Assembly: GCA_965217585.1 (NCBI GenBank)
Contig: OZ244561.1
Span: 3,968,001 to 4,032,000 of the forward strand
Origin: Candidatus Latescibacterota bacterium
GTDB taxonomy: Bacteria; Latescibacterota; UBA2968; UBA8231
Length of the DNA stretch: 64,000 nt
Direction of reading: 5' to 3'
In this document: positions 9,661-42,813 of the stretch, piece by piece
How positions within the stretch are numbered: position 1 is the first letter of the stretch
Layout of the letters: each line of letters opens with the position of its first letter
Notes under the pieces: generated by a model
Told to the model about the DNA's origin: nothing
The model's input: only the letters and a program-made list of their open reading frames with translations
Databases searched by the model: none
Made by a program: the position numbers and the translations under genes

Positions 9661-10768
9661 GTGATGTTACGCAGCCGCTAGGCTTTGGTTTATCTTTTCT
9701 GTCATGGATAAAAAACTGTTAGACCTCTATAGTGACTATCTGTTGAGTTCTTTTGGCGCGACGACCGCCACCGGCCTTTCGTCTTTGTTAGATGGCCAAA
9801 TCAGCCACGACCAAGTGACGCGGTTTTTGTCCCAAGCCGACTACACGTCGAAAGAGCTCTGGCATCAAGTCAAATCCGTGGTGCGCACCATCGAGCGTGA
9901 AGACGGGGTGCTCATTTTCGATGATACGATTCAGGAAAAGCCGCACACGGATGAAAATGAGTTGATCTGTTGGCACTTCGATCATAGTAAGAACCGCTCC
10001 GTCAAAGGCTTGAATCTGCTCAATTGTATCTATCAGGCCGGCGATGTCAGTGTGCCGGTGGCCTATGAGTTAGTGCGTAAACCGATCCTGTTTTGCGATC
10101 GGCAAACGCGGCGAGTCAAACGCAAAAGCGAGGTGACCAAAAATCAGTTGCTGCGGCAGATGCTACGCACCTGCCAACAGAATCGCTTGAGCTACCGCTA
10201 TGTCTTGGCCGATAGTTGGTTTGCGGCCAAGGAAAACCTGTTGTTTATCCGCCAAGACCTGAAGAAACACTTTATCGTCGCCCTCAAATCCAACCGGACG
10301 GTCGCCTTGAGCCCCCAAGACAAAGCCCACGGCCGCTTCGTGCGTATCGATACGCTAGACTGGTCAGACCCCACGCCGGTAACCGCCTGGATCAAAGGAC
10401 TCCCTTTTCCAGTCTTGCTGCATCGGCGAGTCTTTACAAACAAAGACGATTCCACCGGCCTTTTGTATCTGGCCTGTAGTGATCTCGACCAACACGGAGA
10501 CGCCCTTGAGATGATCTATCAAAAAAGATGGAAAGTCGAAGTCTTTCACAAAACGCTCAAGTCCCATGCCGCGTTGGCCAAGTCGCCGACCAAACGGGTC
10601 CGTACCCAAAGCAATCACGTCTTTATGGCCATCTATGCGGCCTTCTCGCTAGAGTGGCTGCGCATCAAGCATCGGATGAATCCGTTTGCCCTCCGATCAA
10701 AACTCTATCTCAAGGCCATTCGACACGCCTTTGACGAATTACAGCAGCTAAAGGCTGCGTAACATCAC
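9661..10768 (+). mobile_element. IS element (IS701-like DDE) with 16-bp perfect terminal IRs and an 8-bp target duplication
   Basis: GTGATGTTACGCAGCC (9661-9676) / GGCTGCGTAACATCAC (10753-10768); TTATGTAA at 9653-9660 and 10769-10776. Confidence 0.9.
9704..10762 (+). CDS. DDE transposase (IS701/IS4-superfamily-like)
   Basis: LIFDDT, VLADSWF, YQKRWKVEVFHKTLK motifs. Confidence 0.9.
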   Translation: MDKKLLDLYSDYLLSSFGATTATGLSSLLDGQISHDQVTRFLSQADYTSKELWHQVKSVVRTIEREDGVLIFDDTIQEKPHTDENELICWHFDHSKNRSVKGLNLLNCIYQAGDVSVPVAYELVRKPILFCDRQTRRVKRKSEVTKNQLLRQMLRTCQQNRLSYRYVLADSWFAAKENLLFIRQDLKKHFIVALKSNRTVALSPQDKAHGRFVRIDTLDWSDPTPVTAWIKGLPFPVLLHRRVFTNKDDSTGLLYLACSDLDQHGDALEMIYQKRWKVEVFHKTLKSHAALAKSPTKRVRTQSNHVFMAIYAAFSLEWLRIKHRMNPFALRSKLYLKAIRHAFDELQQLKAA

Positions 10769-10943
10769 TTATGTAAGGAGCCGGTAGCTAAGTGGGTGTT
10801 GGTCAACGCGATAGCTTGACTATCTCCATAGGGGTTACTCGTAATTTGGCAGAGGATACAATCTCCCCGATCTGCTTCGGCCAATACCAAGGCTGGTCTC
10901 AATTTCGTCTGTGACAGGTCGGAAAATGGAAATGGCACTAAGA

Positions 10944-11159
10944 CTATTGATCTTGCTGTAGGTGTGCCCATGCGGCATCCTCTTCTGGGCGATTCCAATC
11001 TTCAGCTAATGCGGCTTCACTAAGCAAGGCAGTTTCAGTCATATTCGACTCAGCGGAGAGAATCGTCACAAATGCACGTTGCGGTTTAGGCAATTGGACC
11101 GGCTCCAGTAAGCTAACATTGCCCTGCTCATCGATTACCGCTTCAATAATTTTGATCAT
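10944..11159 (-). CDS. putative antitoxin upstream of and overlapping mazF
   Basis: 71 aa, acidic C-terminus ALLSEAALAEDWNRPEEDAAW; AGGAG RBS; TA operon geometry. Confidence 0.75.
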   Translation of the reverse strand: MIKIIEAVIDEQGNVSLLEPVQLPKPQRAFVTILSAESNMTETALLSEAALAEDWNRPEEDAAWAHLQQDQ

Positions 11160-11195
11160 GTTCTACTCCTTTGGCCATCGGATTTGGGCATCCCG

Positions 11196-11245
11196 TATAA
11201 CTTTAGGTTATAAAAAAGGTTACAGTCTTAGAATGCCCTAGTCAA
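11196..11245 (-). promoter_or_regulatory. antitoxin-mazF promoter with a palindromic operator
   Basis: TTGACT-N17-TAACCT (11245-11217) followed by TATAAC-N5-GTTATA (11196-11212). Confidence 0.55.
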
Positions 11246-11313
11246 GCCATAATCATCGTCCCGAACTGTATGTAGTTCACGGGTTAGATTCGCATCTATG
11301 AAAGGCTGATTCG

Positions 11314-12285
11314 ATGAAGCAGATTGTGCGACAACTGGACATCCTGCGGACGCTTCAGGCACGGCGTTACGGAGCGAGCGTTCGCGAACTGGCAGACGAG
11401 TACAAAGTAGATAGGCGCACCATACAGCGCGATCTGGAAGACCTGCGCGAGGTAGGGTTTCTGATGGACGAACGGCGCACCGATCAGCGCATTTACTACC
11501 AACTACAAAAGGACACCAAGCTGCCACTGAACTTTCCGATCATGGAAGTCGCGGCGATGATCTTTGCCGAGCAAGCGGGCATGGGGCTGGTGGGGACGCC
11601 GTTCGGCGAGCACCTGCGGTCGGCGATTCGCCGGCTGACCCAAGCCATGCCCCCGGAGATGCGGCAATTCCTAGAGCGAGCCGCAGAGGCTTACGTGCCG
11701 CTGGCGCGCGGGCACAAGCCCTATGAAGACGCCCGAGAGATACTCGAAAACCTGCACGACGCCATACTGGAGCGCCGCGTGTGCTGGGTGAGCTATCGCT
11801 CGCCGGGGGCGGAGGCCCGGCAGTACAATATCGAACCGCTGCGCCTCCTGCCGCACCGAGGCGGTCTGTACGTGATTTCGCGGATGCCTTACTACGACCA
11901 GCTCATTACGCAGGCGGTGGATCGCTTTGAGGCGGTGGACGTGACCGAGGAGGAATTCGAGCCGCCGGATCACCTGTCGGTTGACGAACGATTGAGCAAT
12001 GCGTTCGGCATCTCATCCGAGGAGCCGATGGACGTGGTGGTTCGGTTCACCGAGGAGCAGGCACCCTATATACGGGAGCGGATCTGGCATCCGAGCCAGA
12101 CGCTGGAAGAAATGGACGACGGTCGGATAGTGCTGCGGCTGCGGGCCGGGGGGTTTTACGAGATCAAGAGTTGGGTGTTGAGCTTTGGAGCGGCGGCTGA
12201 GGTGCTGGAGCCGGATGAGTTGCGGGAGGCGGTGCGGGAAGAGATGCGGGCGGCGCTGGGATTGGATGACGAGGGTGCGACGTGA
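11314..12285 (+). CDS. HTH-WYL-WCX transcriptional regulator (YafY/DriD/PafBC-like)
   Basis: wHTH ELADEYKVDRRTIQRDLEDL; WYL core SYRS..IEPLRL...GLYVI; WCX tail WHPSQ...WVLSFGAAAEVLEPDELRE. Confidence 0.93.
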   Translation: MKQIVRQLDILRTLQARRYGASVRELADEYKVDRRTIQRDLEDLREVGFLMDERRTDQRIYYQLQKDTKLPLNFPIMEVAAMIFAEQAGMGLVGTPFGEHLRSAIRRLTQAMPPEMRQFLERAAEAYVPLARGHKPYEDAREILENLHDAILERRVCWVSYRSPGAEARQYNIEPLRLLPHRGGLYVISRMPYYDQLITQAVDRFEAVDVTEEEFEPPDHLSVDERLSNAFGISSEEPMDVVVRFTEEQAPYIRERIWHPSQTLEEMDDGRIVLRLRAGGFYEIKSWVLSFGAAAEVLEPDELREAVREEMRAALGLDDEGAT

Positions 12286-12309
12286 TCTGTCGCAGGAGTT
12301 CAGTAATAT
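12276..12309 (+). promoter_or_regulatory. candidate WYL-activator operator plus -10 element
   Basis: TGCGAC-N7-GTCGCA palindrome (12276-12294); TGTCGC-N10-TAATAT geometry. Confidence 0.65.
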
Positions 12310-12343
12310 CTTCCAAGGAAGCCGTAAATTTTACACAGAGGAG

Positions 12344-12458
12344 ATGAAGATGAGGCACTTTAAGCTTGTGGCGTTAGCAGGAAATCCTAACTGGGCACTC
12401 AATGAATTTAAGGCTGGGAGGGCTCGTTATGGCTGGAGTTGGTTTCCCGGTGCAGATC
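12344..12458 (+). pseudogene. 5' fragment of a gene truncated by the IS (possibly a restriction-endonuclease-like protein)
   Basis: GAGGAG RBS; M(K)MRHFKLVALAGNPNWALNEFKAGRARYGWSWFPGAD stops exactly at the IS IR. Confidence 0.55.
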
Positions 12459-13636
12459 GGCTTTGTTGCATGAAACCAGGTCGGCTGTGTTGGCCTCTTG
12501 GTTTTTTGGTTTACGCTTTTTTTGTGATCGGATAGGACTCGGGTTTGGCCAACGCGAGCAGTCGGTTAAGTACCGCACAACCCAACCGTGTTTCGGTCTG
12601 TTGGTGGGGTAAGGTTCGGGCGCGTAAGGTATCGCCGAGTATCTGTTTATAGCGGCCTATCTGCGTTTCGGCGATCGAGCGGCGATGATAGCCGCTGTCG
12701 TTTTTCCAGGTTCGACGGCCCCGTTGGCGGATCGCTCGAATCGTCTCATCGCGGGGTAACGGCTCGGCGTGAGTGTTGCCATGTTGCTCGATTTTGGCGT
12801 CCTTGCGCGGCGGAATGATCGGGCGAATAGGCCGGCCTTGATCGGGCGCGGCCAACGCGTCGAAGACCTTGCGCTTATCATAGGCTCCATCGCCACCCAA
12901 CGCGACCACGGACGCTTCGACTTGCTGCAGCAACGGCTCCACCTGCGAGGCATCATCTCGGCGGTTGGTGGTCAAGGTCTGTGCGACGATTTCGCCGGTA
13001 GCCTCGTTGACCCCTAGGTGCAATTTGCGCCATGCGCGCCGCTTCGTCCAACCGTGCTGACGCACCTTCCACTCGCCTTCCCCATACACTTTCAGCCCCG
13101 TCGAGTCAACCACCAAGTGCAGGGGTTGGTCGGTACGCTGGGGCGGTAGATCCACCGCCAAATCCGCCTGACGGCGAGACCAGGTCGTGTGATCGGGCCC
13201 CTGTAGATCCAGTCCCATCAAGGCCAAGATGGAGCCGACAAAGCCCTCGGTTTGGCGCAGCGGCAAATGATAGAGCATCCGTAGCGTCAACGCCGTTTGG
13301 ATGGCTCCATCCGAAAAGGTGTATTGCGCTCCCCGCTGGGAGGGCCCTTGATAATACCAAGCTTGAACCGCTTGGGGGCTAAACCACACCGTCAGACTCC
13401 CCCGCTGTTTAAGGCCGGCCTCGTAGGCAGACCCATTACGCACCCGGTATACGACCTTCGGGCGACCGCGAGCAAACTTGACCGGGGAGGAAGAAGACGA
13501 TACCTTGGGCATGACAGGTTCCTTGGACGAGAAAGCATGGATTTTTTGCCAAAAAGGTCCTGCCCAAACTACTAAGGAACCTGTCTTTATTCAACCAATG
13601 AACACAAGAAAAACCGACGATTCATGCACCAAAGCC
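12459..13636 (-). mobile_element. IS5-family, IS903-group element without target duplication
   Basis: IRs GGCTTTGTTGCATGAA (12459-12474) and TTCATGCACCAAAGCC (13621-13636), 1 mismatch; flanks do not match. Confidence 0.88.
12511..13512 (-). CDS. IS5-family (IS903 group) transposase
   Basis: LKQRGSLTVW, LPLRQTEGF, VVDSTGLKVYGEGEW, WRKLHLGV, DGAYD, GYHRRSIAET. Confidence 0.95.
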   Translation of the reverse strand: MPKVSSSSSPVKFARGRPKVVYRVRNGSAYEAGLKQRGSLTVWFSPQAVQAWYYQGPSQRGAQYTFSDGAIQTALTLRMLYHLPLRQTEGFVGSILALMGLDLQGPDHTTWSRRQADLAVDLPPQRTDQPLHLVVDSTGLKVYGEGEWKVRQHGWTKRRAWRKLHLGVNEATGEIVAQTLTTNRRDDASQVEPLLQQVEASVVALGGDGAYDKRKVFDALAAPDQGRPIRPIIPPRKDAKIEQHGNTHAEPLPRDETIRAIRQRGRRTWKNDSGYHRRSIAETQIGRYKQILGDTLRARTLPHQQTETRLGCAVLNRLLALAKPESYPITKKA

Positions 13637-15663
13637 ACTTTCTGGCGCAACTGGAGGACTTTCAAAAGCAACTCTGGCTGAAGAAAAAGTTTGTACTCGA
13701 AACCAACTGGTGTGTTACTCTAAATCGCATCCCGAAGGCTTTGTATCCCGAGATCGCCACCAACGCGGCACAGTGCGAGGAATGGGTTGAGTTGTTCGCC
13801 GTTGACGAAATTCCGGGTGATCTGATAAACGGAGGTGCGACTTGGAGCAATCCGCCGAGTCTCGATTTCCTCAAGGCCAACCCCTACCTGGTGCTGGACA
13901 CGCGGCACTTTGACCGCGATTTCACCGACCGACTGCTGGCGGCACTCTCCGACTCTGGATCGCTTGATGAGCAGTTGGACGGTCTGCTGGTGCATGGCGA
14001 AAATTTTCAGGCGTTGAATCTGCTGCAAGCACGGTATCATGGGCAGGTGCAGTGTGTCTATATCGATCCTCCGTACAATACAGATGCGACACCGATACTG
14101 TACAAGAATGACTTAAAAAGTTCATCGTGGCTAGGTTTACTACATTCTCGATTGATACCAACCATGACTCTTCTAGAACGCAATGAACATGCCTTATGCG
14201 TTGCGATTGATGATACTGAGTTAGCAAATCTTTCAAAACTAGTCGAGATTGACTTCCCACACTATGAACTCCACCGTGTTATAGTAAATCACTATCCGGG
14301 ATCAGGAACGGGACGAAGCAACGTAACACGTACACACGAGTATGGTTTATTTTTAGTCCCTAAGGATGTTGACATCGTCAGAGGAAAAGCTAAATCGGAT
14401 GGAAAACGCGAAAGAAACTTTCGTAGGAGCGGGACCGGAGAAAATAATTATCGAACTGGTCGTCCAAATAGTTTTTACGCAGTTGTGGTCAATCCGAAGA
14501 CCTATAAGATCATTCGTGTCGAAGAACCACCAAGACTTGGCTCTAGCTATCCAAAAGAAACAACTGAAGAAGGATACATTCGTATTTATCCGATTGGAAA
14601 AGATGGATCTGAACGAGTATGGACTCTTAGCTACGAAAGAGCTAAGTTAGCTTTGAAGCAGGGGACACTTTTATGTACACAGAATCTTTCAATAAACAGA
14701 ATTTACGAAGACAAAAACTCCAGAAGTTTGTTAAAAAGTGTATGGCTAGATAAAAAGTATAATGCTGTAACAAACGGCACAAATCTCTTGAAAGATCTTT
14801 TTAGTGTCTCGAATTTATTTTCTTATCCAAAATCAATATTTACAGTTCAAACATCCATAGATGCGATCATATATGAAAATGATGAGGCTATTGTACTCGA
14901 CTACTTCGCTGGCTCCGGCACCACCGGCCACGCAGTTATCAACCTCAACCGCGAGGATGGTGGACAGCGCAAGTATATTTTAGTAGAAATGGGCCATCAC
15001 TTCGACACAGTTCTGTTGCCGCGAATAAAGAAAGTCATCTATTCACCAGATTGGAAGGATGGCAAGCCGGTTTCGCGCAATGGCGTCACGCAGTTGTTCA
15101 AGTACATCCGACTGGAATCGTATGAAGATACGATGGACAGTCTTGAAGTGACGCCACCTTCAGATGCACAGCAGGCTTTGCTGGCCGAGAATACCGCGCT
15201 GGCCGAGGATTATCGGCTGCGCTACGCACTCGGTGTGGAGACTGCTGGTAGTGCGTGTCTGCTGAGCAAGGCGTTCGCTGATCCCTTCACCTACACGCTC
15301 TCCGTCGTGCGCGATGGTGTGCGCCGAGAAGTTCAGGTTGATCTGCCCGAGACCTTCAACTACTTGATCGGTTTGTGCGTGGTATCCCGCCAGCGGATTG
15401 ACGGTGTGCTCGCTATCACAGGCATAGACCCCGAAGGGCGCAACTGTCTGATCCTCTGGCGCAATCTTGACGAAACGGACCACGCCTCGCTGGACACCTA
15501 TTTTGATCGTAATCGTGAACAATTCGGATCACTGGACATCATCTACGCCAACGGCGACCACACTCTGAACGCCATGCAGCAATACGGCGAGAATTGGACT
15601 GCAAAGACCATTGAGCCAATTTTTCGTGAATTGATGTTTGGGGGGGCCAACAATGAGCAATAA
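13624..15663 (+). CDS. mod: type III R-M methyltransferase (Mod), 5'-truncated at the IS
   Basis: YIDPPYN and LDYFAGSGTTGHA motifs in beta-class order; the only in-frame ATG at the start lies inside the IS IR. Confidence 0.85.
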   Translation: MHQSHFLAQLEDFQKQLWLKKKFVLETNWCVTLNRIPKALYPEIATNAAQCEEWVELFAVDEIPGDLINGGATWSNPPSLDFLKANPYLVLDTRHFDRDFTDRLLAALSDSGSLDEQLDGLLVHGENFQALNLLQARYHGQVQCVYIDPPYNTDATPILYKNDLKSSSWLGLLHSRLIPTMTLLERNEHALCVAIDDTELANLSKLVEIDFPHYELHRVIVNHYPGSGTGRSNVTRTHEYGLFLVPKDVDIVRGKAKSDGKRERNFRRSGTGENNYRTGRPNSFYAVVVNPKTYKIIRVEEPPRLGSSYPKETTEEGYIRIYPIGKDGSERVWTLSYERAKLALKQGTLLCTQNLSINRIYEDKNSRSLLKSVWLDKKYNAVTNGTNLLKDLFSVSNLFSYPKSIFTVQTSIDAIIYENDEAIVLDYFAGSGTTGHAVINLNREDGGQRKYILVEMGHHFDTVLLPRIKKVIYSPDWKDGKPVSRNGVTQLFKYIRLESYEDTMDSLEVTPPSDAQQALLAENTALAEDYRLRYALGVETAGSACLLSKAFADPFTYTLSVVRDGVRREVQVDLPETFNYLIGLCVVSRQRIDGVLAITGIDPEGRNCLILWRNLDETDHASLDTYFDRNREQFGSLDIIYANGDHTLNAMQQYGENWTAKTIEPIFRELMFGGANNEQ

Positions 15664-16546
15664 TCAATACCAATCCGAAGATCATCTTACATTCTCGCAG
15701 CGTTATGGTTACGCGCCCTTGCTGGATCCGATGCAATTGGAGGATCTTTCGGATGATCTAAGGCGAGAATTATGGAATGTAACTCGGAAATTACTTCTAT
15801 CGCTAAGAGGGATCAACTCATTATTGACTCCAAAATTTGAAGAAGGTACTCTGTTTATTGAACGTGTACTGGGCAAGTATTTGAAGAAGCCAGAAGATGA
15901 AATCAGTACTTCTTATGAATTTGCGAAGGATAATTTTAAAAACTTGATTCTGCAAGGCAGTTTCAATGAGGTTCTTGATTTTGTTGAAATTATGGTAAAC
16001 GAAAGAAGGTATGATAAGGAATTTATCAAACGTATCAGTGAATCATTTGAAAGATGTGCCGCTGCGTACTGGTTAGACAAATCTAACTATCCGTATCAAA
16101 TTTTCCCGCGCAGTAATAAGGCGCAGGGCGAGGCAACACAAGAAGCCATCAAAACGGTCCGCGATGGCGGTATGAAAGGTGCAGAGGCGCACTTGTGCCA
16201 AGCGGCAGAATATATTAACGCACAGCGATTTGCTGAGTCAATTAAAGATAGCATCCACACGGTTGAATCTGTTGCTCGCCAAATTGATCCAAAATCAAAA
16301 ACCCTTGGTCCTGCGCTAAACTCTCTCGAGAAAGCCGGTTTGATAAAGCATCCAGCACTCAAAGAAGCGTTCTCAAAGCTGTATGGCTATACCAGTGACG
16401 AACAAGGGATTCGGCACGCGTTACTCGATAAGAACTCTCCAGATGTTGACCTAGACGAAGCCATGTTCATGTTTGGAGCCTGCGCGTCCTTTGCCGCCTA
16501 TTTGGTAAGCAAACACCATAAGATGCAAGAAGAGGATGACAAATGA
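15653..16546 (+). CDS. AbiJ-N-terminal-domain-like protein, putative abortive-infection effector
   Basis: TFSQRYGY...LSDDLRRELWN N-terminus; ESIKDSIHTVESV...KLYGYTSDEQGIRHA C-terminus; overlaps both mod and res; AT-rich. Confidence 0.65.
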   Translation: MSNNQYQSEDHLTFSQRYGYAPLLDPMQLEDLSDDLRRELWNVTRKLLLSLRGINSLLTPKFEEGTLFIERVLGKYLKKPEDEISTSYEFAKDNFKNLILQGSFNEVLDFVEIMVNERRYDKEFIKRISESFERCAAAYWLDKSNYPYQIFPRSNKAQGEATQEAIKTVRDGGMKGAEAHLCQAAEYINAQRFAESIKDSIHTVESVARQIDPKSKTLGPALNSLEKAGLIKHPALKEAFSKLYGYTSDEQGIRHALLDKNSPDVDLDEAMFMFGACASFAAYLVSKHHKMQEEDDK

Positions 16547-19500
16547 CACGCCTACAGAGCCGCCTTGCCCTCCATCGCTTCGTTTGTCTGGAATTCGGCT
16601 ACGATGACATGGACGCGATGCTCGAACGGTTGCACTATGCCCAGGGCGAACTCATCTCAGAAGGCACGAGCGACTATGCCCAATCGCTACAGCCCTATCC
16701 TACACGAGCCCTCGTTACCCCCGACCAGTTTGCCGAATACGACGCCAACATCGCGGCGCACAGCCGCCAGCTTCGTATGACAGAGGAACACGGCCGGACC
16801 TGGAAACCCCATCAATACCTCGCCCTGTTATTCACCGAACACTATTTACAGCGCTATTTCGACGATCCCGAGACCCTATGCGCCGACCTGAATCATGAGA
16901 AGGCCAGCCATCAACCAACTGCGAGCATGCCGGACTACACGGTAGAAGACCTGCACACCCTCGCTTTCCAGAGCGCGACGGGTTCTGGCAAAACGCTCCT
17001 CATGCACGCCCATATTCTGCAATACCGGCATTATTTGGACCGTGCGGGAAAGCGGCTAAACAATATTGTGCTGGTGACGCCGAATGAGCAGATGTCCATG
17101 CAACACGAGCGCGAGATGCAGGAAAGCGGTCTGCGGGCACGGCTATTTTCCAGCGAAGCCGGTTCTGACTTGTTCACATCCGTCGAGATCATCGACCTGA
17201 ACAAACTGGCCGAAAAAAAGGGCGTAAAGCGCGTTGCGGTAACGGATTTCGGCGACGACAATCTGGTGCTGGTTGACGAAGGACACCTAGGCGCATCGGG
17301 CAATGTTTGGCGCGAACGCCGCCGAGAATTGGCGAGCGGAGGCTTTGCGTTTGAATACTCCGCGACCTTCAATCAAGTAGCGGGCAAAGACAACGACCTG
17401 CTAAACGCCTACGGCAAATGCCTGCTATTCGACTACACATACCGCCGATTCCATGCAGATGGCTACGGCGAGGATTACGCCATCCTGAACCTGCCGGGCG
17501 GGGTGCAGGACGAAAACAGCGACATGTACCTGCTGGGTTGCCTGCTGACCTTCTACCAGCAATACCGCATCTATCGAGACAAGGGCGCTTTGTGGAAAGC
17601 ATTCAATCCGGCAAAACCGCTGTGGGTATTCCTCGGCAAGACCGTGACGGGATCGAGCAAAGCAGACCAGGCGACCCGATCCGATGTCATCCGCATCCTG
17701 AATTTTCTCGGTTGGGTGCTGGCCCACGGCGAAGACGTGCGGGCCATGATCCAACGCCTATTAGCCGGGAAATCGGGATTGCTCAACAGTACCGGCAACG
17801 ATTGCTTTGCTGGCCGCTTTTCCCATTTGCCGAGCGGGGAAGACCTCTACGCCGATCTCTGCGAGACTCTGTTTCACGGAGCGGGACGGCTGCACATCGT
17901 CTATCTGACCGCAGGCGAGGGCGAATTGCACCTTCGCACCGCGGACAATGATCCTTTTGGCGTGGTCAATGTCGGGGACTCGACGAAGCTCTACAATCTG
18001 CTCACGGAAAGCCCTAACCCCGATTTCGCTGTTGATCGAGAGATGGGCTTTGTCGCCCGGCTGTTCGCCGATGTGGACCGCCCAGATTCAACCGTGAACA
18101 TTGTCATCGGCGCACGGCGTTTTATTGCAGGCTGGAACTCATGGCGGGTGAGCACGATGGGACTGATGCATGTCGGCGTGAACGAAGGTCCTGAAATCAT
18201 CCAGATGTTCGGACGCGGCGTGCGTCTGAGGGGCTATAATATGAGCCTGAAGCGGCACCGCGAAAGCGAAGTGGAACTGCCGGAGGACAGTGATGAACTG
18301 GCGGAATTGGAGAAGCTATACATTTTTGGGCTGCGAGCCAACTATATGCAGACTTTCCGGGATCTTCTGGAAAAAGAAGGAATGCGCGCCGAACAGGAGA
18401 CTTTCAGCTTTCCCATCACATGGAACTTTGCCAAGAAGACAGACCTGAAGCTGATCCGACTCAAGGATGACCGAAAATACAACCTCTCCGCTAAGCGTCC
18501 CGTCCTGCCGGGGCCGACTGATAGTAACCGCATAGTGACGCTGGATCTATATTCACGACTTCAATCCGTCGCATCCGATGGATCTGCGTTCAGTGAGGGA
18601 ACAGAACAAGATTCGGTCAGCCTCGCGTCACACGCCACCTTCTTCAACACAGCCCGTATTTACGAGCGGCTGTTATCGCGCAAGCAACAAAAAAGCTGGC
18701 ACAATCTGGTTATTGAACCGTGGACTGTGGAACAGCTATTGCAAAGCGATAACTGGTACGAACTCTATATGCCGCCAGATCGGTTGAACGCCACCGGATT
18801 CAAGCAGATGCGCGGATTGGAGAACATCGCCCTTGATCTGCTCACCGAATACGCCGATAACTTCTGGCGCAGGCAGCGCAGACGCTGGGAACACGACGAG
18901 ATTGAGGTCGTCGCGCTGGAAGAGGATGATCCAAACAATGCCGTAAGCTACGAGCTATCCGTGGATGTAACCAAAGGTCAGTTGGTCAAGGACGCGGGGG
19001 AACTGGCGTACAATATCCGCGAGGGCCAGTGCGACGAGTTAAAAGAATGGTATGAGCACTTGAAAATCGGCGTCATTTGGTCACAAGCTCATGCGTATCA
19101 GCCACTGCTACATACCCGGAAGGATCGCATCGTTACAGTTCAACCTGTACCCTTGGACGAAAACGAGAAGCGCGTTGTCGAGCAGCTGGAAGAGCTGACC
19201 CGGAAAGGTGATCCCTGCTTACAAGGCAAAGAGTTGTTTCTGATTCGCAATCTGACCCGCGGTCGGGGTGTGTCCTTTTTCGACGACTTCGGTTATTACC
19301 CGGATTTCATCGTCTGGTTGAAGGACGACGTACATCAGCACGTTCTCTTTCTCGATCCGAAGGGCTTGAGCCGGTTCGGCCAAAGAGAACGCAAAAAGGT
19401 GCAACTACACCACGAAATCGCGGAAATTGAGGAGCGAGTGCGCGAGAACGACGCGGACTTGTACCTGCATGCCTATATTTTGTCCGTCACGCCGGCTTCG

Positions 19501-19842
19501 GAGATTGATGATGGCAGTCGTTCTGTGAATGAGTGGAAAACGGATGGTGTTTATTTTTTAAATGAGGCTGATTGCATCCAACAGGTCATCCAACATGCGT
19601 TAGGACTCTCTGATGGGGAAACCACGATGCAACTAGATCCCGAGACCGAGCGACGGCTCGACCTGCTGGTGTCCGAGACCGGGCGCAGCAAGGCTTTTTA
19701 CCGGCGTGAGCTCACTAAACGCAGCCTTGAGGACATCGAGGACTACTACCTCGCCATGGCCGTGCTAGAACGCGTCCGCCAAGGAGAGGAAAAGGTCCAT
19801 TCCTCCTCCGAGGTGAGAAAAGCACTTGGCTTGGACGATTGA
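16543..19842 (+). CDS. res: type III restriction subunit (SF2 helicase + PD-(D/E)xK nuclease) with a C-terminal RelB/CopG-like antitoxin extension
   Basis: ATGSGKT, DEGH, QMFGRGVR, YPDFIVW..FLDPKG; last ~72 aa MQLDPETERRLDLLVSETGRSKAFY...LEDIEDYYLA...VRKALGLDD. Confidence 0.88.
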   Translation: MTRLQSRLALHRFVCLEFGYDDMDAMLERLHYAQGELISEGTSDYAQSLQPYPTRALVTPDQFAEYDANIAAHSRQLRMTEEHGRTWKPHQYLALLFTEHYLQRYFDDPETLCADLNHEKASHQPTASMPDYTVEDLHTLAFQSATGSGKTLLMHAHILQYRHYLDRAGKRLNNIVLVTPNEQMSMQHEREMQESGLRARLFSSEAGSDLFTSVEIIDLNKLAEKKGVKRVAVTDFGDDNLVLVDEGHLGASGNVWRERRRELASGGFAFEYSATFNQVAGKDNDLLNAYGKCLLFDYTYRRFHADGYGEDYAILNLPGGVQDENSDMYLLGCLLTFYQQYRIYRDKGALWKAFNPAKPLWVFLGKTVTGSSKADQATRSDVIRILNFLGWVLAHGEDVRAMIQRLLAGKSGLLNSTGNDCFAGRFSHLPSGEDLYADLCETLFHGAGRLHIVYLTAGEGELHLRTADNDPFGVVNVGDSTKLYNLLTESPNPDFAVDREMGFVARLFADVDRPDSTVNIVIGARRFIAGWNSWRVSTMGLMHVGVNEGPEIIQMFGRGVRLRGYNMSLKRHRESEVELPEDSDELAELEKLYIFGLRANYMQTFRDLLEKEGMRAEQETFSFPITWNFAKKTDLKLIRLKDDRKYNLSAKRPVLPGPTDSNRIVTLDLYSRLQSVASDGSAFSEGTEQDSVSLASHATFFNTARIYERLLSRKQQKSWHNLVIEPWTVEQLLQSDNWYELYMPPDRLNATGFKQMRGLENIALDLLTEYADNFWRRQRRRWEHDEIEVVALEEDDPNNAVSYELSVDVTKGQLVKDAGELAYNIREGQCDELKEWYEHLKIGVIWSQAHAYQPLLHTRKDRIVTVQPVPLDENEKRVVEQLEELTRKGDPCLQGKELFLIRNLTRGRGVSFFDDFGYYPDFIVWLKDDVHQHVLFLDPKGLSRFGQRERKKVQLHHEIAEIEERVRENDADLYLHAYILSVTPASEIDDGSRSVNEWKTDGVYFLNEADCIQQVIQHALGLSDGETTMQLDPETERRLDLLVSETGRSKAFYRRELTKRSLEDIEDYYLAMAVLERVRQGEEKVHSSSEVRKALGLDD

Positions 19843-20083
19843 GTACACCGACACGGCCGAAAAACAGCTTGGCAAGCTCGATAGGCAGACAGCCCGACGC
19901 ATCGTCGATTATATGAATGAACGTGTTGCAGTGCTTGATGACCCACGGCACTTGGGCGAGGCACTGACCGGCCCATTGAGTGGGCTATGGCGTTATCGGG
20001 TGGGAGGTTATCGCGTGATTTGCGACATTCAGGATCGTGTCTTAGTGACGAGGGTCGGCAGTCGCGGTCAAGCGTACCGATAA
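19826..20083 (+). CDS. relE: RelE/ParE-family toxin
   Basis: MAWTIEYTDTAEKQLGKLD...GEALTGPLSGLWRYRVGGYRVICDIQD; TTG start overlapping the upstream antitoxin domain. Confidence 0.9.
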   Translation: MAWTIEYTDTAEKQLGKLDRQTARRIVDYMNERVAVLDDPRHLGEALTGPLSGLWRYRVGGYRVICDIQDRVLVTRVGSRGQAYR

Positions 20084-20228: not shown

Positions 20229-21029
20229 TTAATTATTTATTCCCGAAGTTCGAACGGACGCGCGAACTTGGCCCCCGTGTTCCGCCAGCCAAGAGCGGAA
20301 AAATTGCAACACGGCTGCGCCGTCTCCCTGCTGTCGTTGTTTCCGCTGAATGAGCCATAGCTCGATCTCGACGCCCCGCAGATCCGGGTTTAGCCCTCGG
20401 GCTTGGGGACTACCGTGGAAACGCTTGAAATTTGGCTGACTCTTGTAGAACGAAATCGCGTCGCTGTTTTGTAGGAGATCCGAAACGATGATGAGACGCC
20501 GCGGAACATCGCGCCGCTTGGTACTCTGAAAATGCTTTATGGCAACCGACTGCACCGATTCCATGATCGGCGACGATTTCGCCTCTTTATTGGTGAGCAG
20601 CTTTCTAAGCTCCTCTTCTAAAGGTGCGCGAAATTTCTGCTGCCAGTTACGCCGAATGATCGCTTCGGATTGAGTAAGGTGATCGACGTTTTCCGGGTCG
20701 CCGGGACTACAGACTCTGATAATCGGGTCGAGGCTCCCACCATGCGTAGGGTCCACCGCAAAAAGACTGATCTCGTGATTTTCCTCGATCTCATCGAGCA
20801 GGTTCCAGATCCTAGTCTCCAGATCGGACTTGGTAGTGGGCATGAACGAATCCGTGCGATCGAGCAGGATTGCCGTAATCGCCGAGGGACCCTCCGACCG
20901 GCAAAGGGTCTGCGGATCGCGCTCGACCGACGGCGGCTTTAGCACCACAAAAACGAGCAAGATAACGACGACCCCCACGATCATCGCACCGCCTGCTATC
21001 GTTTTATTCGATAGCTTACCTTTACTCAT
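20229..21029 (-). CDS. membrane-anchored hypothetical protein with a vWA-like fold
   Basis: N-terminal TM helix; AILLDRTDS (MIDAS-like), SPIMES, LIIVSDLLQN; TAATG coupling to the upstream gene. Confidence 0.65.
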   Translation of the reverse strand: MSKGKLSNKTIAGGAMIVGVVVILLVFVVLKPPSVERDPQTLCRSEGPSAITAILLDRTDSFMPTTKSDLETRIWNLLDEIEENHEISLFAVDPTHGGSLDPIIRVCSPGDPENVDHLTQSEAIIRRNWQQKFRAPLEEELRKLLTNKEAKSSPIMESVQSVAIKHFQSTKRRDVPRRLIIVSDLLQNSDAISFYKSQPNFKRFHGSPQARGLNPDLRGVEIELWLIQRKQRQQGDGAAVLQFFRSWLAEHGGQVRASVRTSGINN

Positions 21030-22438
21030 TAACTCTCTTCCTGATCGCCCCTCGGGCTATCTGGCTGCCTTCGATGCGGGGCCAAAGGTCTCAATTCCTC
21101 GCTGCCCATATCGTACTGATAGTGCAGCTCCTTTACGCCGTTATCAATTTTTGTCTCCGCCGCGCTGGTGATCTTCAAGATTTCCTCGCGCGTCAGCATA
21201 GCCTTCGGCAAGGTGGTGTCTATTGGCGTTTTCACTATTCGCCAAGTCTTCTTGAATCGCTCTGGCGCTTCTCCGTCTCGCATCGCCCGGTTGGTATCCC
21301 GGTAGAGCTTGAGCAAGTGATTTCCCGCGTGCTCTAAGTGGTCTAGATGGTCGTCGAACGTTTTGATGAGGCGTCGATGGTCGTCGATGATAGAATCGTG
21401 TTGTCGTCCAGCGAGCAAAATGTTTTGCTTGATGTCCTCCAACGCTTGCACCGCCTCATCCGACGTTTTCTTTAATCCCTTTAGGCAGACCTGATAGAGC
21501 GCGTTGTATACTTCGTCGGCCTCCGCGAATACGCGGGCACACTCCGCGTAACCCGGATAGCGATCATCCCACAGGATTCCATCGATAAAGCTAATAATCG
21601 CAAAGAGGAATCCCATGAAGAACAGGATCCACGATTGGAAGTCCCCTAGACCCAATGGATTGTCGCCGAAAGCGGCGATGGCGAGTTTCCCCCCTTCGTC
21701 GAGCACCGTACCCGTTGTTTCCCGATAGTGCGCCACCATCAAGTTGAAAAACAACGCAAAGGCCATAAACACCACGGCACCGGTGATGCCCACGGACTTT
21801 CTGCTCCAGTGGATGTGGTTGAAATTGGTGACGAGGATGCCGAGCAAAAAGGCAATACCGAGATTGACAAACGAGATGACAACTGCCTCTGTGTACGCGC
21901 CGAACAGCCCAAACTCGTTGCCCTTTGCCAAAAAGGAGGCGTTGCCAAAGGTCTCAATGAGAAAGAGCACGGCGATGATGCCTATGTTAAATATCTTATC
22001 GTCCCAGCTACGGGGCTGTGGCTCGCGGCTAAGGCTATTTTGTTCCTTAAACTGCTGCAAGTCTTCTTTTTTTCGGCGCAGATCCTGTTGCTCTCTGCTC
22101 AACTCTACTATGGCCTTATCGACATTCTGATCGAACTCCGCTCGTTGCTTGGCCGTTTCAATCTCAATGGAACTTAGTTGCTCCCGGAAATCTAGCTCGA
22201 CGAGGCGCGCTCTGTATGCTTTTAGCTCGCTCTCGCATATATTCTGTGCCTGTGCTTGAGCGCTCTCAATTAGCCCGATAACCTTGCGTTCTGTGGGGTC
22301 GAGGTCGTCTTCCGCACTATCTAATGCGGGTCGCCCCCGCCTCGCGTTCCGTTGGCTATCTTCTACTATATGCAGATTTTCCGCGACCTTATTGGTGTCG
22401 ATCTTCTCAAACGGGTTGGTGTGAAGATCGTCTGTCAT
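21029..22438 (-). CDS. hypothetical protein with ~4 TM helices between coiled-coil regions
   Basis: 469 aa; four hydrophobic segments flanked by charged helical stretches; GAGGAG RBS. Confidence 0.75.
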   Translation of the reverse strand: MTDDLHTNPFEKIDTNKVAENLHIVEDSQRNARRGRPALDSAEDDLDPTERKVIGLIESAQAQAQNICESELKAYRARLVELDFREQLSSIEIETAKQRAEFDQNVDKAIVELSREQQDLRRKKEDLQQFKEQNSLSREPQPRSWDDKIFNIGIIAVLFLIETFGNASFLAKGNEFGLFGAYTEAVVISFVNLGIAFLLGILVTNFNHIHWSRKSVGITGAVVFMAFALFFNLMVAHYRETTGTVLDEGGKLAIAAFGDNPLGLGDFQSWILFFMGFLFAIISFIDGILWDDRYPGYAECARVFAEADEVYNALYQVCLKGLKKTSDEAVQALEDIKQNILLAGRQHDSIIDDHRRLIKTFDDHLDHLEHAGNHLLKLYRDTNRAMRDGEAPERFKKTWRIVKTPIDTTLPKAMLTREEILKITSAAETKIDNGVKELHYQYDMGSEELRPLAPHRRQPDSPRGDQEES

Positions 22439-35252: not shown

Positions 35253-35400
35253 AAGTCTTTCTCTGACCTCAGCATCCGCACGAGGCAGCCCTGCGGTTGG
35301 ACCCGCCCGTTTGAATCGCTCTGAGTTGGTGCATCCATCGGGATTTCCCCATGATAGAAGACACTCAATAATACAGAAATTCCTAACGGAGTATTAGACA

Positions 35401-35703
35401 ATGAATACCGGGAAGCAATTGTTGGTAGATGATCGCATCGTAGAAGACACCTGGAACGTGCGGCGCGAGATCGTGCGGCCAGCCAAGCACCTCGACACTC
35501 TATTCTTTTGGCGTGGAGAATTACGGGTAAAAGGTACTACCGCTACGGGCGACTGGATTAAAAAAAGCAGGCCCGCGAATGCGCTACGGGCATTGATCGG
35601 CTCCGACTTTCTGCGGCTTGCCAACGCGCTATCGGCCCTCTATCCTCAGGGCTGCAACGAGAACCGCCTGCTCGACGCTATGCTGTTGGCCTTACCGAGG
35701 TGA
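35401..35703 (+). pseudogene. 5' remnant of a beta-propeller glycosidase-like gene at the left edge of island 2
   Basis: GGAG RBS; KQLLVDDRIVEDTWNVRREIVRPAKH start, then loss of coding character. Confidence 0.4.
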
Positions 35704-35706
35704 CTT

Positions 35707-36927
35707 ATGGCTGATCCAATTCTACGCCGGTTGATATTGTATCGTTTTCGCAGTTTTCCATCGGAGCAGGTGGAATTCGACAACCCGACCTTTATCGTCG
35801 GTCAGAACGGCTCTGGCAAGAGCAACTTCGCCGATGCCTTTGCATTTCTCGCAGAGGCAATGGCCTCCCCGCTGCAAGCAGTTCTCGAACATCGCGGAGG
35901 ATTGGCCACGGTTGGCCATCGAAGCTCGGCAAGGGGCCGCCCGTCAAACTTGGGCATAGCAGTGGTATTGGACAATATAGATGACCATACGACCCAAGCT
36001 CGATACGCCTTTGAGCTGCGCGCCCTGAGAGAGTACGGTTTTGAGGTGGTGCGCGAGCAATGCGTCGTCCAGAGATCTGATGGATCATGGGATTGGTTTG
36101 ATCGCTCTACATCCTCCAGAAGTTCTTCCATAAGTTGGGAAAGCACCGCGAATTCCCTAGAACCGGTCATGGAACCGAGCGCCTTGGCCCTGCCGCTAGT
36201 CGGGGGCGATGAACGCTTTCAGGCGGTTGCGCGCTTCCTGTCGGAAATGCGAGTGTATCGGATCGAGCCGGTTGTACTTCGAGAGATGCAGGATCCGGAC
36301 AGCGGTGTGCGCCTGCGCTCTGATGGCAGCAACGCCGCGAGTGTGTTGCGCGAGATCCAACGCAAGTCCCCGGACGACTGGAAGCGAATCCTCGAGCTTC
36401 TCGAAAGCATCGTTCCCGGTACCGTCGGTGTCCGGCCCAAGAAGCACGGCAACAAACTGACGCTGGAATTCATCCAAGATTGGGCGAGGTCGGAACGAGT
36501 GAAATTCGAGGCGTACAACATGTCCGATGGCACGCTTCGAGCAATGGGGTTGCTCGCTGCCGTCTTCCAACGCCCGGCACCCTCGCTCCTGGTAATTGAA
36601 GAACCGGAAGCCACAATACATCCGGGCGCTCTCGGTTCGGTCCTCGACCTATTGCGACATGCGGGCCGCTTTATGCAGGTGATAGTAACGACGCACAGCC
36701 CGGATGTTCTCGACGCCAAATGGATCGAGGCTGAACACCTGCGGATGGTAAGCTGGGCAGAAGGCGCGACCCAGGTTGCCCCAGTCTCCGAGGCTACTCG
36801 CAGCGTTCTCAAAGAACATCTGATGGGCGCGGGCGAGCTGCTGCGCGCCAATGCGTTGACAGCGACCGAACTGTTCGATCAGAACCCGCGTCAGATCAAG
36901 TTGTTCGAGGATGACCTCGCGTGCTAA
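35707..36927 (+). CDS. ABC-type (AAA_21-like) ATPase
   Basis: GQNGSGKS, MSDGTLR, IEEPE..IHP, TTHSP. Confidence 0.9.
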   Translation: MADPILRRLILYRFRSFPSEQVEFDNPTFIVGQNGSGKSNFADAFAFLAEAMASPLQAVLEHRGGLATVGHRSSARGRPSNLGIAVVLDNIDDHTTQARYAFELRALREYGFEVVREQCVVQRSDGSWDWFDRSTSSRSSSISWESTANSLEPVMEPSALALPLVGGDERFQAVARFLSEMRVYRIEPVVLREMQDPDSGVRLRSDGSNAASVLREIQRKSPDDWKRILELLESIVPGTVGVRPKKHGNKLTLEFIQDWARSERVKFEAYNMSDGTLRAMGLLAAVFQRPAPSLLVIEEPEATIHPGALGSVLDLLRHAGRFMQVIVTTHSPDVLDAKWIEAEHLRMVSWAEGATQVAPVSEATRSVLKEHLMGAGELLRANALTATELFDQNPRQIKLFEDDLAC

Positions 36928-37550: not shown

Positions 37551-37639
37551 GCACGATGCTTTGGGGTAGCCCCTCCGCAGAAATCGAGAATATGGAGTAG
37601 GGTGCGGCGGTCGGTTGAAGCTACTTGGGGATATATGCT

Positions 37640-37730
37640 GCACCACGAGTTCAAGGATCTTGATCTCCGACTCGCGGTAGTCAATGAGCACATCTGCGTC
37701 GGCGAGCAGCACAGTCTGGGCCATCGCCAT
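37640..37730 (-). pseudogene. 5' fragment of a PIN-like toxin downstream of the ImmA/IrrE gene
   Basis: TAG-ATG abutment; VLLADADVLIDY PIN-like start; frame then runs antisense into DUF4276. Confidence 0.5.
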
Positions 37731-38864: not shown

Positions 38865-39000
38865 TGTTTTTCCTCGTGGGGTATTTGATCAATTTCTTGA
38901 AAGTTATCATCTTTTCTATTTTATGACAAATGATATCTTATCGATACCGACTTCAGCTTCCCATCTTGATCTCCGCGTCCCTTTTCCCTAGATTGTCGTT

Positions 39001-40376: not shown

Positions 40377-40395
40377 TGACTAGTCAGATAGCGAA

Positions 40396-42810: not shown

Positions 42811-42813
42811 GGA

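Follow-up and report, generated by a model that had tools for sequence, protein, structure and literature searches.

Two transcriptional activators, DriD and PafBC, are the characterised WYL regulators closest to the protein described here. DriD of Caulobacter crescentus, a homodimer (PDB 8TP8, 9PFQ and others), recognizes sites with the consensus CGxC(X)7GxCG; in excerpts of the published account (PMC10853764), base reading within the CGxC half-site falls to Arg37 (for G2), Glu40 (for C1) and Arg41 (for the G paired with C4). In the published passages on its alphaproteobacterial homologues, 68 of 69 carry a site in their own promoter, and the R207A and Y240A substitutions impair DriD. In the excerpted description of a didA promoter oligo, an 'optimised -35' was placed by the authors 17 nt before CAATCT (PMC13004042). 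PafBC, a mycobacterial WYL activator that works by sigma adaptation, uses the promoter motif tGTCgg(N10)tA(N3)T; its promoters lack a -35 element, and the guanines of GTC are read by two arginines (PMC8635444). According to a published excerpt, PafBC binds DNA only in the presence of RNA polymerase.

Most descriptions of WYL regulators that adjoin defence genes present them as repressors. BrxR and CapW, the characterised representatives from defence islands, are repressors in the published passages that concern them, in agreement with the initial annotation of the locus, and in a published tree they occupy a clade apart from the DriD, PafB, PafC and DdaA clusters (PMC12392091). The idea that a cis element might lie inside the regulator gene has already been raised, in an excerpt on brxR. 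A literature search pairing WYL with Latescibacter or Gemmatimonad returned nothing relevant on an earlier description of the family analysed below, and our search found no description of a WYL site at the stop codon of its own regulator.

A palindrome and putative promoter at the WYL stop codon

In the window (the whole 64-kb stretch of DNA analysed), a forward-strand ORF at 11314-12285 is called as a WYL regulator gene encoding a 323-residue protein with wHTH, three-helix-bundle, WYL and WCX parts. Its last two sense codons and stop codon are overlapped by the palindrome TGCGAC-GTGATCT-GTCGCA (12276-12294, strandless), a predicted WYL-dimer site that we call the box, which consists of TGCGAC (12276-12281), a spacer (12282-12288) enclosing the TGA stop codon (12283-12285) and GTCGCA (12289-12294). 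TGTCGC (12288-12293) is followed after 10 nt by a -10-like hexamer, TAATAT (12304-12309, forward strand), and a Shine-Dalgarno sequence, GAGGAG (12338-12343, forward strand), stands 6 nt before the second of two ATG codons, at 12344 and 12350. The -10 element usually lies about 7 nt from the start of transcription, which would put the start at 12315-12317 on the forward strand and the box centre (12285) at about -31. We found no -35 hexamer at the box promoter, its position being taken by CGTGAT, and a scan of 11000-12600 for the sigma-70 consensus returned no complete promoter.

The initial annotation had reported the palindrome, TGTCGC-N10-TAATAT, GAGGAG and the truncated ORF, and all were recovered, the palindrome at its exact coordinates. 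Its description of a DriD-like core and a PafBC-like promoter also fits the literature: the box agrees with the DriD consensus as given in the published excerpt (PMC10853764), and TGTCGC-N10-TAATAT conforms to the PafBC motif (PMC8635444). Moreover, both the spacing of TGTCGC-N10-hexamer and the 19 bp that separate the box centre from the first base of TAATAT are identical to those of the didA promoter oligo in its excerpted form (PMC13004042).

The box is significant by virtue of its conservation in orthologous loci, not of its count in a single window. The exact sequence TGCGAC-N7-GTCGCA occurs once in 64 kb, and the same pattern with up to two mismatches gives 4 matches in the window compared with 4.74 expected; taken singly, such a palindrome is within what chance would produce. 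Further CGAC-N7-GTCG matches elsewhere in the window (at 35784 and 50617, and those with one mismatch) were set aside as chance occurrences that lie inside ORFs and lack a -10 hexamer at N10. For the box itself, conservation rules out chance. In the comparison of orthologous WYL genes that the initial annotation had proposed, it recurs, overlapping the stop codon with at most one mismatch at 18 of the 24 close orthologous loci with a readable 3' end; an intact stop-codon box is absent from the remaining six. Of the 23 loci in a second clade, with 44-50% protein identity, 18 have the related palindrome [CT]GAC-N7-GTC[AG], which there begins exactly 10 nt beyond the stop codon. Among the close loci, the stop-codon box is kept even where the DNA downstream is unrelated, and its spacer is conserved and GC-containing, (G/A)(C/T)GATCT. 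The genomes that supply these WYL relatives are Latescibacterota and Gemmatimonadota metagenome-assembled genomes (MAGs).

Further copies of the box are found beyond the stop codon. The 25 close loci (301,650 bp) hold 58 boxes, whereas 40 shuffles gave 1.0 on average and at most 7, with the proviso that many loci are orthologous and the counts are therefore not independent events. All copies share one orientation, and 57, all but one, are found downstream of where the WYL gene starts, each ahead of an ORF that in most cases has a Shine-Dalgarno sequence; 40 of the 58 lie away from the WYL stop codon, ahead of downstream ORFs. The only upstream copy in the 25 loci is 5.2 kb off, behind another WYL gene, and none of these loci has a strict box in the flank directly upstream of the WYL start. 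The -10 hexamer accompanies the box at a fixed distance: NAnnnT occurs exactly 10 nt past the box in 48 of 57 contexts, versus 0 of 57 on the mirror side and a background of 3.9%, and the stricter TAnnnT at the N10 offset in 36 of 57 (background, 0.44%).

Kinship of the WYL protein

Homologues with 70-98% identity cover the WYL protein over its full length. Pfam domains HTH_11 (residues 6-49), WYL (142-210) and WCX (237-315) were identified, and the AlphaFold2 model (pLDDT 81) shows a bundle of three helices (residues 76-92, 96-110 and 114-127) that separates the wing from the WYL domain, an arrangement also described for DriD and PafBC. In searches by sequence against proteins of solved structure, DriD was found with an E value of 2e-14 from the single sequence (phmmer) and 4e-20 from a profile; PafBC was second best (2e-9), and neither BrxR nor CapW was matched by the profile even at E<=10. 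Foldseek with the predicted model gave the same order, with DriD at 5e-19 (~23% identity) and PafBC at 3e-15, followed by BrxR (1.7e-7) and CapW (1.7e-6), whose entries together range from 1.7e-7 to 3e-5. Sequence and modelled fold thus support grouping the protein with the DriD/PafBC activators and not with BrxR and CapW. In addition, the base-reading residues Arg37, Glu40 and Arg41 of DriD align with R35, Q38 and R39, and across 26 family members R35 and R39 never vary and Q38 hardly does.

Given this kinship, the retained base-reading residues, the spacing shared with characterised promoters and the missing -35 hexamer, an activator-type promoter is the best reading of the box and its -10 hexamer. 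The initial annotation had likewise proposed an activator-class WYL protein of the DriD/PafBC type; the sequence and fold matches agree with that assignment, and activation itself is what the architecture suggests. Against this, of the four DriD residues that were changed to abolish alpha-CTD binding, only one recurs in the WYL protein. An alternative is that the box is an operator and the protein a repressor of the BrxR/CapW kind, which would sit on a defence-gene promoter until a ligand produced after DNA damage or infection released it. The box does overlap the core promoter (-35) region, where a repressor could also bind; the cargo behind boxes includes candidate defence genes by PADLOC (PDC-S26 nucleases, Mrr-like and IetA-like AAA ATPases); and the two characterised regulators from defence islands act in this way in the published passages. 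Nevertheless, we regard repression as unlikely. The proposed models for it go undetected by sequence and score far below DriD and PafBC by fold, and BrxR, in the published excerpt, binds upstream of its own transcription start, a region that holds no box here. Moreover, promoters with a -10 but no -35 element would offer little basal activity to repress, and the spacing is that of two activator systems.

The signal to which an activator of this type would respond is less readily assigned by kinship. We compared the ten residues of the DriD ssDNA pocket (Y168, S172, R178, R189, Y192, R204, W206, R207, Y240 and R288) with their counterparts and found three identical, Y161, R182 and Y186, in alignments at ~23% identity. 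Four others, R204, W206, R207 and Y240, correspond to I198, Q200, A201 and S234 in two independent alignments at this same low identity, and R288 aligns with Y282. Thus ssDNA, suggested as a signal by family analogy, is doubtful, and part of the pocket speaks against it. If the pocket is altered as these alignments indicate, the signal would be something other than the ssDNA bound by DriD.

A truncated Mrr-family gene and changing cassettes

The first gene behind the box survives as a stub of 36 codons (12350-12458, forward strand) cut off by an IS element. Its full-length relatives P0122-P0125 (340-345 residues) are 75-86% identical to it across the stub, three of them begin with MRHFKL, and Pfam Mrr_cat lies at residues 195-293 of P0122. 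By homology, the stub is the 5' end of a gene for an Mrr-family restriction endonuclease of about 343 residues. We also considered whether it might be the missing N-terminus of the type III methyltransferase encoded beyond the IS element; this is ruled out, as the relatives of the stub are Mrr_cat proteins of ~343 residues and those of the methyltransferase align from about residue 340. In a separate observation, two of the five Mrr-like matches have a longest contig as long as that of a WYL match (12007 and 23795), the sole hint of adjacency. The remainder of the Mrr gene was found neither in the window nor in the 57 related loci.

The IS element (12459-13636, 1178 bp, minus strand) is IS5/IS903-like. 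It has 16-nt inverted ends (12459-12474 and 13621-13636) and a minus-strand transposase gene (12511-13512) with Pfam domains DDE_Tnp_1_5 and DDE_Tnp_1, and no further copy was found in the window. IS903-like elements of the IS5 family are expected to create a 9-bp target duplication, whereas the 9-bp flanks here, GTGCAGATC and ACTTTCTGG, are unlike each other. The ends and the transposase agree with the IS903-like label of the initial annotation; the target-site duplication is absent, which we attribute to a deletion next to the element after it had inserted.

The deletion also reached the gene on the far side. The type III methyltransferase gene mod (13637-15663, forward strand; Pfam N6_N4_Mtase) is truncated at its 5' end, its listed ORF beginning at an ATG (13624) within the end of the IS element. 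Residue 5-6 of the encoded protein aligns with approximately residue 340-380 of homologues of ~1000 residues, and the protein covers positions 369-1053 of the 1057-position PADLOC MTase_III profile, so that, judged from these alignments, mod is short of about 365 N-terminal residues (range ~340-380), its first third. A loss of this size means that at least ~2 kb has been deleted at the junction, as estimated from the homologues, and the two truncations together with the absent target duplication mark the present junction as secondary. The initial annotation had the promoter pointing into a type III restriction-modification/Abi operon with mod as its first gene, and the IS element simply separating the two; neither part survives, since the first gene is Mrr-like, mod itself is incomplete and the IS flanks record a deletion. 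The switch in this window is a relic, with both the target nuclease and the neighbouring mod broken.

Could the type III genes nevertheless have belonged to the switch? Beyond mod lie genes for an AbiJ_NTD4 protein (15638-16546, forward strand; Pfam, and PDC-S32 by PADLOC) and for the type III restriction subunit, res (16543-19842, forward strand; Pfam, and REase_III by PADLOC), and all three are neighbours rather than demonstrated targets of the WYL protein. Before the IS event, the box promoter might have driven one long operon of mrr, the lost DNA, mod, the AbiJ-like gene, res and ParDE. These genes share one strand directly downstream of the box, the deletion removed whatever lay between them, and the stretch from box to IS element has no terminator-like site save weak ones at the IS end. 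We nonetheless think such an operon improbable. Cassettes in relatives tend to have their own box, and none was found between 13.6 and 20 kb. Furthermore, homologues of mod, the AbiJ-like gene, res and Mrr are missing from all 57 related loci, and the rest of the window likewise yielded no further homologue of mod, the AbiJ-like gene or res. The present junction is secondary, and the type III genes may be no more than the adjoining gene set of the island.

The related loci also bear on whether the palindrome acts in transcription at all. Homology with nine loci stops at 12289-12296, directly past the box, and copies of the box stand between different cassettes, as might be expected of a recombination or cassette-boundary site such as an integron attC-like site or the target of a mobile element. 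That interpretation is very unlikely: there is no integrase or recombinase among 102 neighbouring ORFs from 10 loci; the copies have one orientation, a -10 hexamer at fixed offset and an ORF behind them, mostly with a Shine-Dalgarno sequence; and the box agrees with the site bound by DriD, the closest characterised protein to the regulator encoded beside it, in which the residues that contact the bases are retained. Least plausible of all is a role in RNA, as a hairpin that closes the WYL mRNA and serves in termination, stabilisation or the ending of translation, for although the box as RNA would form a 7-bp stem of -8.0 kcal/mol holding the stop codon, no U tract follows, the terminator scan did not report it, 40 of 58 copies lie elsewhere than at a WYL stop codon and the conserved -10 at N10 is a feature of DNA.

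We consider it probable, taking these observations together, that a DriD-type WYL protein and a box promoter form one switch, that its Mrr-family target was lost here to the IS element and deletion, and that variable cassettes take the place of this target in relatives. The protein would be a homodimeric transcription factor of a Latescibacterota-like genome, and its two wHTH recognition helices, through R35, Q38 and R39, could read both CGAC half-sites of the stop-codon box, which would occupy the place of a -35 element with its centre ~31 bp before the predicted start. Because a -35 hexamer is missing, the ligand-bound protein most likely acts by recruiting or adapting the housekeeping RNA polymerase, much as DriD and PafBC do, to turn on the gene that follows immediately. 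For the present genome this would have been the Mrr-family restriction endonuclease gene, until an IS5/IS903-like element and a deletion left 36 of its codons and also took the first third of mod; the present switch would drive only the stub, reading into the IS element. In relatives, the WYL gene and stop-codon box appear to hold one conserved chromosomal site followed by changing cassettes, many of which come with a further copy of this box and -10 hexamer. One sensor could thus govern a local, changing assortment of genes for nucleases, AAA ATPases, envelope proteins and DnaB.

A bolder and only tentative extension is that the WYL gene with its stop-codon activator site acts as a portable 'inducible socket', uniting a variable island into one changing regulon that responds to a signal other than the ssDNA of DriD. 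If so, anything landing behind the box, and every cassette that carries a box, would come under one sensor. Mrr-like and PD-(D/E)XK nucleases, multi-AAA ATPases, envelope proteins and a DnaB helicase operon would then constitute a single regulon, and its membership would shift with cassette turnover.

Comparison with known WYL systems

Set beside BrxR and CapW, DdaA, PafBC and DriD, the locus most resembles the activators. BrxR and CapW resemble the regulator in being wHTH-WYL-WCX proteins that adjoin variable defence cargo, but they are distant from it by sequence and fold and, in the published passages, bind upstream of their own genes as repressors. An activator-class WYL protein over anti-phage genes is not new: DdaA of Moraxellaceae is described as such a protein, acting on DNA-damage and anti-phage genes including cas clusters, and it shares with the present family a related palindrome, CGWCA-N5-TGWCG, and a changed ssDNA-contact arginine (PMC12392091). 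To this activator design (DriD, PafBC, DdaA) the locus adds comparative evidence from a defence-adjacent setting, and it extends the design to two little-studied phyla known here from metagenome-assembled genomes only.

With PafBC, which ranks next to DriD in sequence and in fold, the locus has in common the bipartite N10 motif and the lack of a -35 element. In contrast, PafBC is a heterodimer of the PafB and PafC paralogues that, in the published excerpt, reads a non-palindromic half-site, the -26 element, whereas a single gene and a full palindrome are found here. The boxes of the related loci offer a ready collection of promoters in which to study how WYL activators substitute for the -35 contact.

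DriD provides the closest parallel. It is the best match by both sequence and fold, has the same order of wHTH, three-helix bundle, WYL and WCX, and binds a palindromic CGAC-N7-GTCG core with base-reading Arg, Glu (here Gln) and Arg that are kept. There are also several differences. First, the DriD site lies in the regulator's own promoter in the published excerpts, and here at the 3' end of the regulator gene; this unusual placement over the stop codon would let regulator and inducible promoter travel as a compact unit, with successive cassettes marked by further promoter copies. Second, the spacers of DriD sites are AT-rich and variable in those excerpts, in contrast to the conserved spacer here, which is not AT-rich. 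Third, the two proteins share ~23% identity, and at that level of identity 7 of 10 ssDNA contacts are changed. Fourth, DriD belongs to another phylum than these Latescibacterota and Gemmatimonadota MAGs. Finally, DriD serves dispersed repair and division genes, whereas the boxes in the related loci belong to a local island of cassettes. For uncultured bacteria, these features suggest a rule for finding such regulons: CGAC-N7-GTCG followed by TAnnnT, the 10-nt gap being measured from one base past GTCG (TGTCGC-N10).

A candidate activator site at the WYL stop codon

The gene for the 323-aa WYL protein (11314-12285, + strand; Pfam HTH_11, WYL and WCX) ends within a perfect 6+6 palindrome or ‘box’, in which TGCGAC (12276-12281) and GTCGCA (12289-12294) flank the 7-nt spacer GTGATCT, which contains the stop codon TGA (12283-12285). 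The sequence TGTCGC (12288-12293) lies exactly 10 nt before a -10-like hexamer, TAATAT (12304-12309), and a Shine-Dalgarno sequence, GAGGAG, follows at 12338-12343. The initial annotation had described these elements, and all were confirmed at exact coordinates. ATG 12350 is the likely start codon of the ORF behind the box, given the 6 nt that separate it from the Shine-Dalgarno sequence and the MRHFKL opening of three full-length relatives. Taken alone, in a single window, the palindrome is statistically unremarkable: its exact form occurs once in 64 kb, and there are 4 matches with two or fewer mismatches versus 4.74 expected. It is the only box in the window, with the remaining core matches sitting within ORFs and lacking a -10.

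The window layout equals that of the DriD didA oligo, printed with an ‘optimised -35’ version (PMC13004042), in which TGTCGC is followed, after 10 nt counted by hand from the printed oligo, by CAATCT. In the ‘optimised’ version, by the same count, TTGACA was introduced 17 nt upstream of CAATCT, with its first base on the final C of the left CGAC; the window has CGTGAT at this -35 position. One group has printed the didA site in two forms (ATACGTCC...GGCGCA in one paper, ATACGACC...GTCGCAA in another), and the spacing comparison uses the 2026 oligo. The PafBC motif, tGTCgg(N10)tA(N3)T, likewise occurs in promoters without a -35 (PMC8635444), and a sigma-70 consensus scan of 11000-12600 found no complete promoter. 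Both activator systems use promoters in which a factor site stands in for the missing -35 ahead of a good -10, and this parallel is the chief argument that the WYL site would act in activation. The competing reading, in which WYL is a BrxR/CapW-type repressor, is unlikely, as a good -10 without a -35 leaves little to repress.

A broken Mrr-family target

The stub behind the window box, 36 codons from 12350, matches five proteins at their N-termini with 75–89% identity; four of these are 340-345 aa long, three of the four carry precomputed PF04471, and Pfam places Mrr_cat at residues 195-293 of the full-length relative P0122. By homology, the first target of the window promoter was thus an Mrr-family endonuclease. 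An IS (12459-13636; 16-nt inverted ends, DDE transposase) follows. Its 9-bp flanks are unequal (GTGCAGATC versus ACTTTCTGG), and on its right side the sequence joins a type III methyltransferase partway in, near residue 340-380 of a ~1000-aa protein; the PADLOC MTase_III match of the window mod spans profile positions 369-1053 of 1057. The listed ATG of the mod ORF (13624) falls within the right-hand inverted end of the IS (13621-13636), which joins IS and mod sequence in frame into a predicted fusion ORF of 679 aa.

Unequal flanks and truncation of both genes indicate that the IS event removed at least ~0.9 kb of mrr, ~1.0-1.1 kb of mod and whatever lay between. The proposal that the promoter drives mod and a type III operon is therefore not upheld, since the first gene is Mrr-family and mod is 5'-truncated. 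The companion claim that an IS lies between promoter and mod holds for the presence of the element but must accommodate its unequal flanks and the deletion of parts of mrr and mod. That the promoter once served a long operon reaching into the type III system is doubtful; loss of the joining DNA leaves room for it, and mod, the AbiJ_NTD4/PDC-S32 gene, res and the Mrr-like gene occur in none of the related loci. The present IS junction is uninformative on the original operon structure, and the WYL switch in this window is a relic.

Several neighboring features were recorded. In the 19600-20083 region, no stop codon separates the res ORF from a ParD-like antitoxin segment in the same frame (with an internal ATG at 19627; by eye), and the end of the joint ORF is overlapped by a ParE toxin gene (19826-20083; Pfam ParE_toxin, 1.3e-15). 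Between the ParE gene and an enolase-superfamily gene, two adjacent minus-strand ORFs of 266 and 469 aa (20229-22438) have no Pfam or PADLOC match. A second defence-like cluster (35400-51800) contains an AAA_21 ATPase with DUF4276, HTH-Peptidase_M78 (IrrE-like), AAA_14/DUF4143, DUF488, a further AAA_15/21 ATPase and an N6_N4 methylase–TIR_2 protein–ResIII/RE_endonuc set.

Boxes, promoters and cargo among relatives

The WYL protein has 389 matches at E<=0.001, and the top ones among the best 120 of these 389 show 70–98% identity. A one-genome-per-species scan recovered 57 loci, nearly all in Latescibacterota and Gemmatimonadota MAGs. In the close clade (loci L001-L025; 73–92% identity), 24 loci have a readable 3' end, and in 18 of them the search downstream of orthologous WYL genes suggested by the initial annotation found a box with at most one mismatch across the stop codon. 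Degenerate remnants mark the stop in L006 and L009, L025 has the left half only, the L022 box is displaced to 19 nt after the stop, and inspection of L010 and L023 found no box at the WYL stop. Of 23 loci counted in a second clade (44–50% protein identity), 18 have [CT]GAC-N7-GTC[AG] beginning exactly 10 nt past the stop; no such site was found in five Planctomycetota homologues (29–33% identity).

The window flank at ~2.1-9.5 kb (efflux pump, ClpP, Fpg, DUF5069 and GATase genes) is about 88–93% identical to that of many of these loci, and homology picks up again immediately ahead of the WYL start codon or at it. Its downstream end falls at 12289-12296 in nine loci (L006, L009, L011, L012, L013, L014, L016, L019 and L025), at ~12300-12322 in nine more and at 12354 in three, with none past 12354 among the loci compared. 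What is conserved is thus the WYL ORF plus box, sometimes with the -10, followed by variable DNA. At 9704-11159, insertions part the GATase and WYL genes of the window: a DDE_5 transposase gene and two small minus-strand ORFs (one of 71 aa, the other a 77-aa PemK-like fragment), of which the small pair also occurs in L017 (homology from 10770). Some genomes carry two WYL-plus-stop-box modules in tandem, each with its own cassettes: L001 and L003 lie 8.8 kb apart on one chromosome, and further cases are L018:11981 and L048:7465, with L048 having an additional N-terminal WYL fragment.

The close loci, 25 in number and 301,650 bp in total, contain 58 boxes at one or fewer mismatches, whereas 40 shuffles averaged 1.0 and never exceeded 7. 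All but one of the boxes lie downstream of the WYL start of their locus, and the exception (1 of 58) sits behind a neighboring WYL paralogue. Non-stop boxes share the consensus ...aaaaA..ttc.gcC TGCGAC gcGATCT GTCGCA CCTcct.g. tAa.tT. Of 57 distinct contexts, 48 have a hexamer of the form NAnnnT and 36 one of the form TAnnnT starting 10 nt after TGTCGC (background 3.9% and 0.44%), and 0 of 57 fit at the mirrored position on the other strand. The box counts overstate independent events because many loci are orthologous, yet several unrelated cargo types are represented. ORFs start 30-120 nt beyond, most preceded by a Shine-Dalgarno sequence. In non-stop boxes the spacer is conserved and asymmetric, (G/A)(C/T)GATCT, including GATC, and an A-tract lies 10-14 nt upstream, in an UP-element-like position. 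Two further readings sit badly with the data: it is very improbable that the box is a recombination site, and still less probable that the palindrome is an RNA hairpin, which reaches -8.0 kcal/mol but lacks a U tract.

Cargo varies. A 184-229-aa protein without a Pfam family, paired with a PDDEXK_4 nuclease (PADLOC candidate PDC-S26), directly follows the stop-codon box in L002, L003, L004, L005 and L015. Elsewhere, a ~155-aa lipoprotein-like protein precedes a ~690-aa double-AAA ATPase (partial IetA-like PADLOC matches), followed in L009 and L016 by an ADP-ribosylglycohydrolase; the AAA ATPase itself lies immediately behind the box in L020, L022 and L024. Uncharacterised cargo proteins comprise 329 aa (L001/L021), 231 aa (L016) and 152 aa (L013). 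An outer-membrane beta-barrel protein and DnaB helicase follow the box in L002, L005 and L021 (the last by the N-terminus of the OMP gene), and DnaB follows immediately in L004 and L015. Box-promoters precede dnaB, directly or via the beta-barrel gene, at L002:9069-11100, L004:9597-10999 and L015:9016-10421, and a conserved hairpin-like stretch (cctgtggg...cccacagg) follows this box variant.

In all six second-clade loci annotated, the gene after WYL encodes a 930-1000-aa triple-AAA ATPase, interrupted in L043 by IS110. In the stretch ~10-90 nt past the WYL stop of loci L026-L046 and L050 (for example, L033:6959-7040), the box is followed by TAnCTT-like hexamers at N10, and a strong hairpin with a T-run starts right behind the -10. 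As a start ~7 nt after the -10 would sit in the hairpin 5' arm, box-driven transcripts might bypass a terminator that would halt WYL read-through. A sigma-54-like TGGCAC-N5-TTGC (by eye) comes next in some loci, before the ATPase gene.

Regulator class, signal and relation to known systems

The best solved relatives by sequence are 9PFQ, 8TP8, 7TZV and 7U02 (E 2e-14; 4e-20 with a 26-member profile). According to the structure papers, 8TP8 and 9PFQ are C. crescentus DriD, and Foldseek names 7TZV the DriD C-domain. PafBC chains come second (2e-9, 8e-8); neither single sequence nor profile matched BrxR or CapW at E<=10 among solved structures. Foldseek on the predicted model ranks DriD (5e-19) and PafBC (3e-15) ahead of BrxR (1.7e-7) and CapW (1.7e-6), with low whole-chain TM-scores (~0.34), which is to be expected when a multi-domain protein is modelled as a monomer. 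Placement in the DriD/PafBC class rather than with BrxR/CapW, as originally proposed, is borne out by both comparisons. DriD recognizes ATACGAC(X)7GTCGTAT, or CGxC(X)7GxCG, through Arg37-G2, Arg41-G opposite C4 and Glu40-C1 contacts (PMC10853764). These residues align with R35, R39 and Q38 of the window WYL; across 26 family members, R35 and R39 are invariant and Q38 nearly so.

The pocket is less conserved. DriD contacts ssDNA through Y168, S172, R178, R189, Y192, R204, W206, R207, Y240 and R288, and Y192A, Y240A and R207A are reported to impair activation. Only Y161, R182 and Y186 match in the window WYL; pairwise and profile alignments agree in placing I198, Q200, A201 and S234 at DriD R204, W206, R207 and Y240. 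With most contact residues altered, the proposed ssDNA signal is possible but draws no support from the pocket. DdaA, too, reportedly differs at an ssDNA-contact arginine (PMC12392091).

Among repressors, a cis element within the brxR gene has been suspected. Our literature search found no description of a WYL site overlapping its regulator's stop codon, of a box-promoter array marking cassettes behind a WYL regulator, or of this WYL family in Latescibacterota/Gemmatimonadota. Activator-class WYL regulators themselves (DriD, PafBC, SiwR and DdaA) and DdaA control of anti-phage genes (PMC12392091) are already in print.
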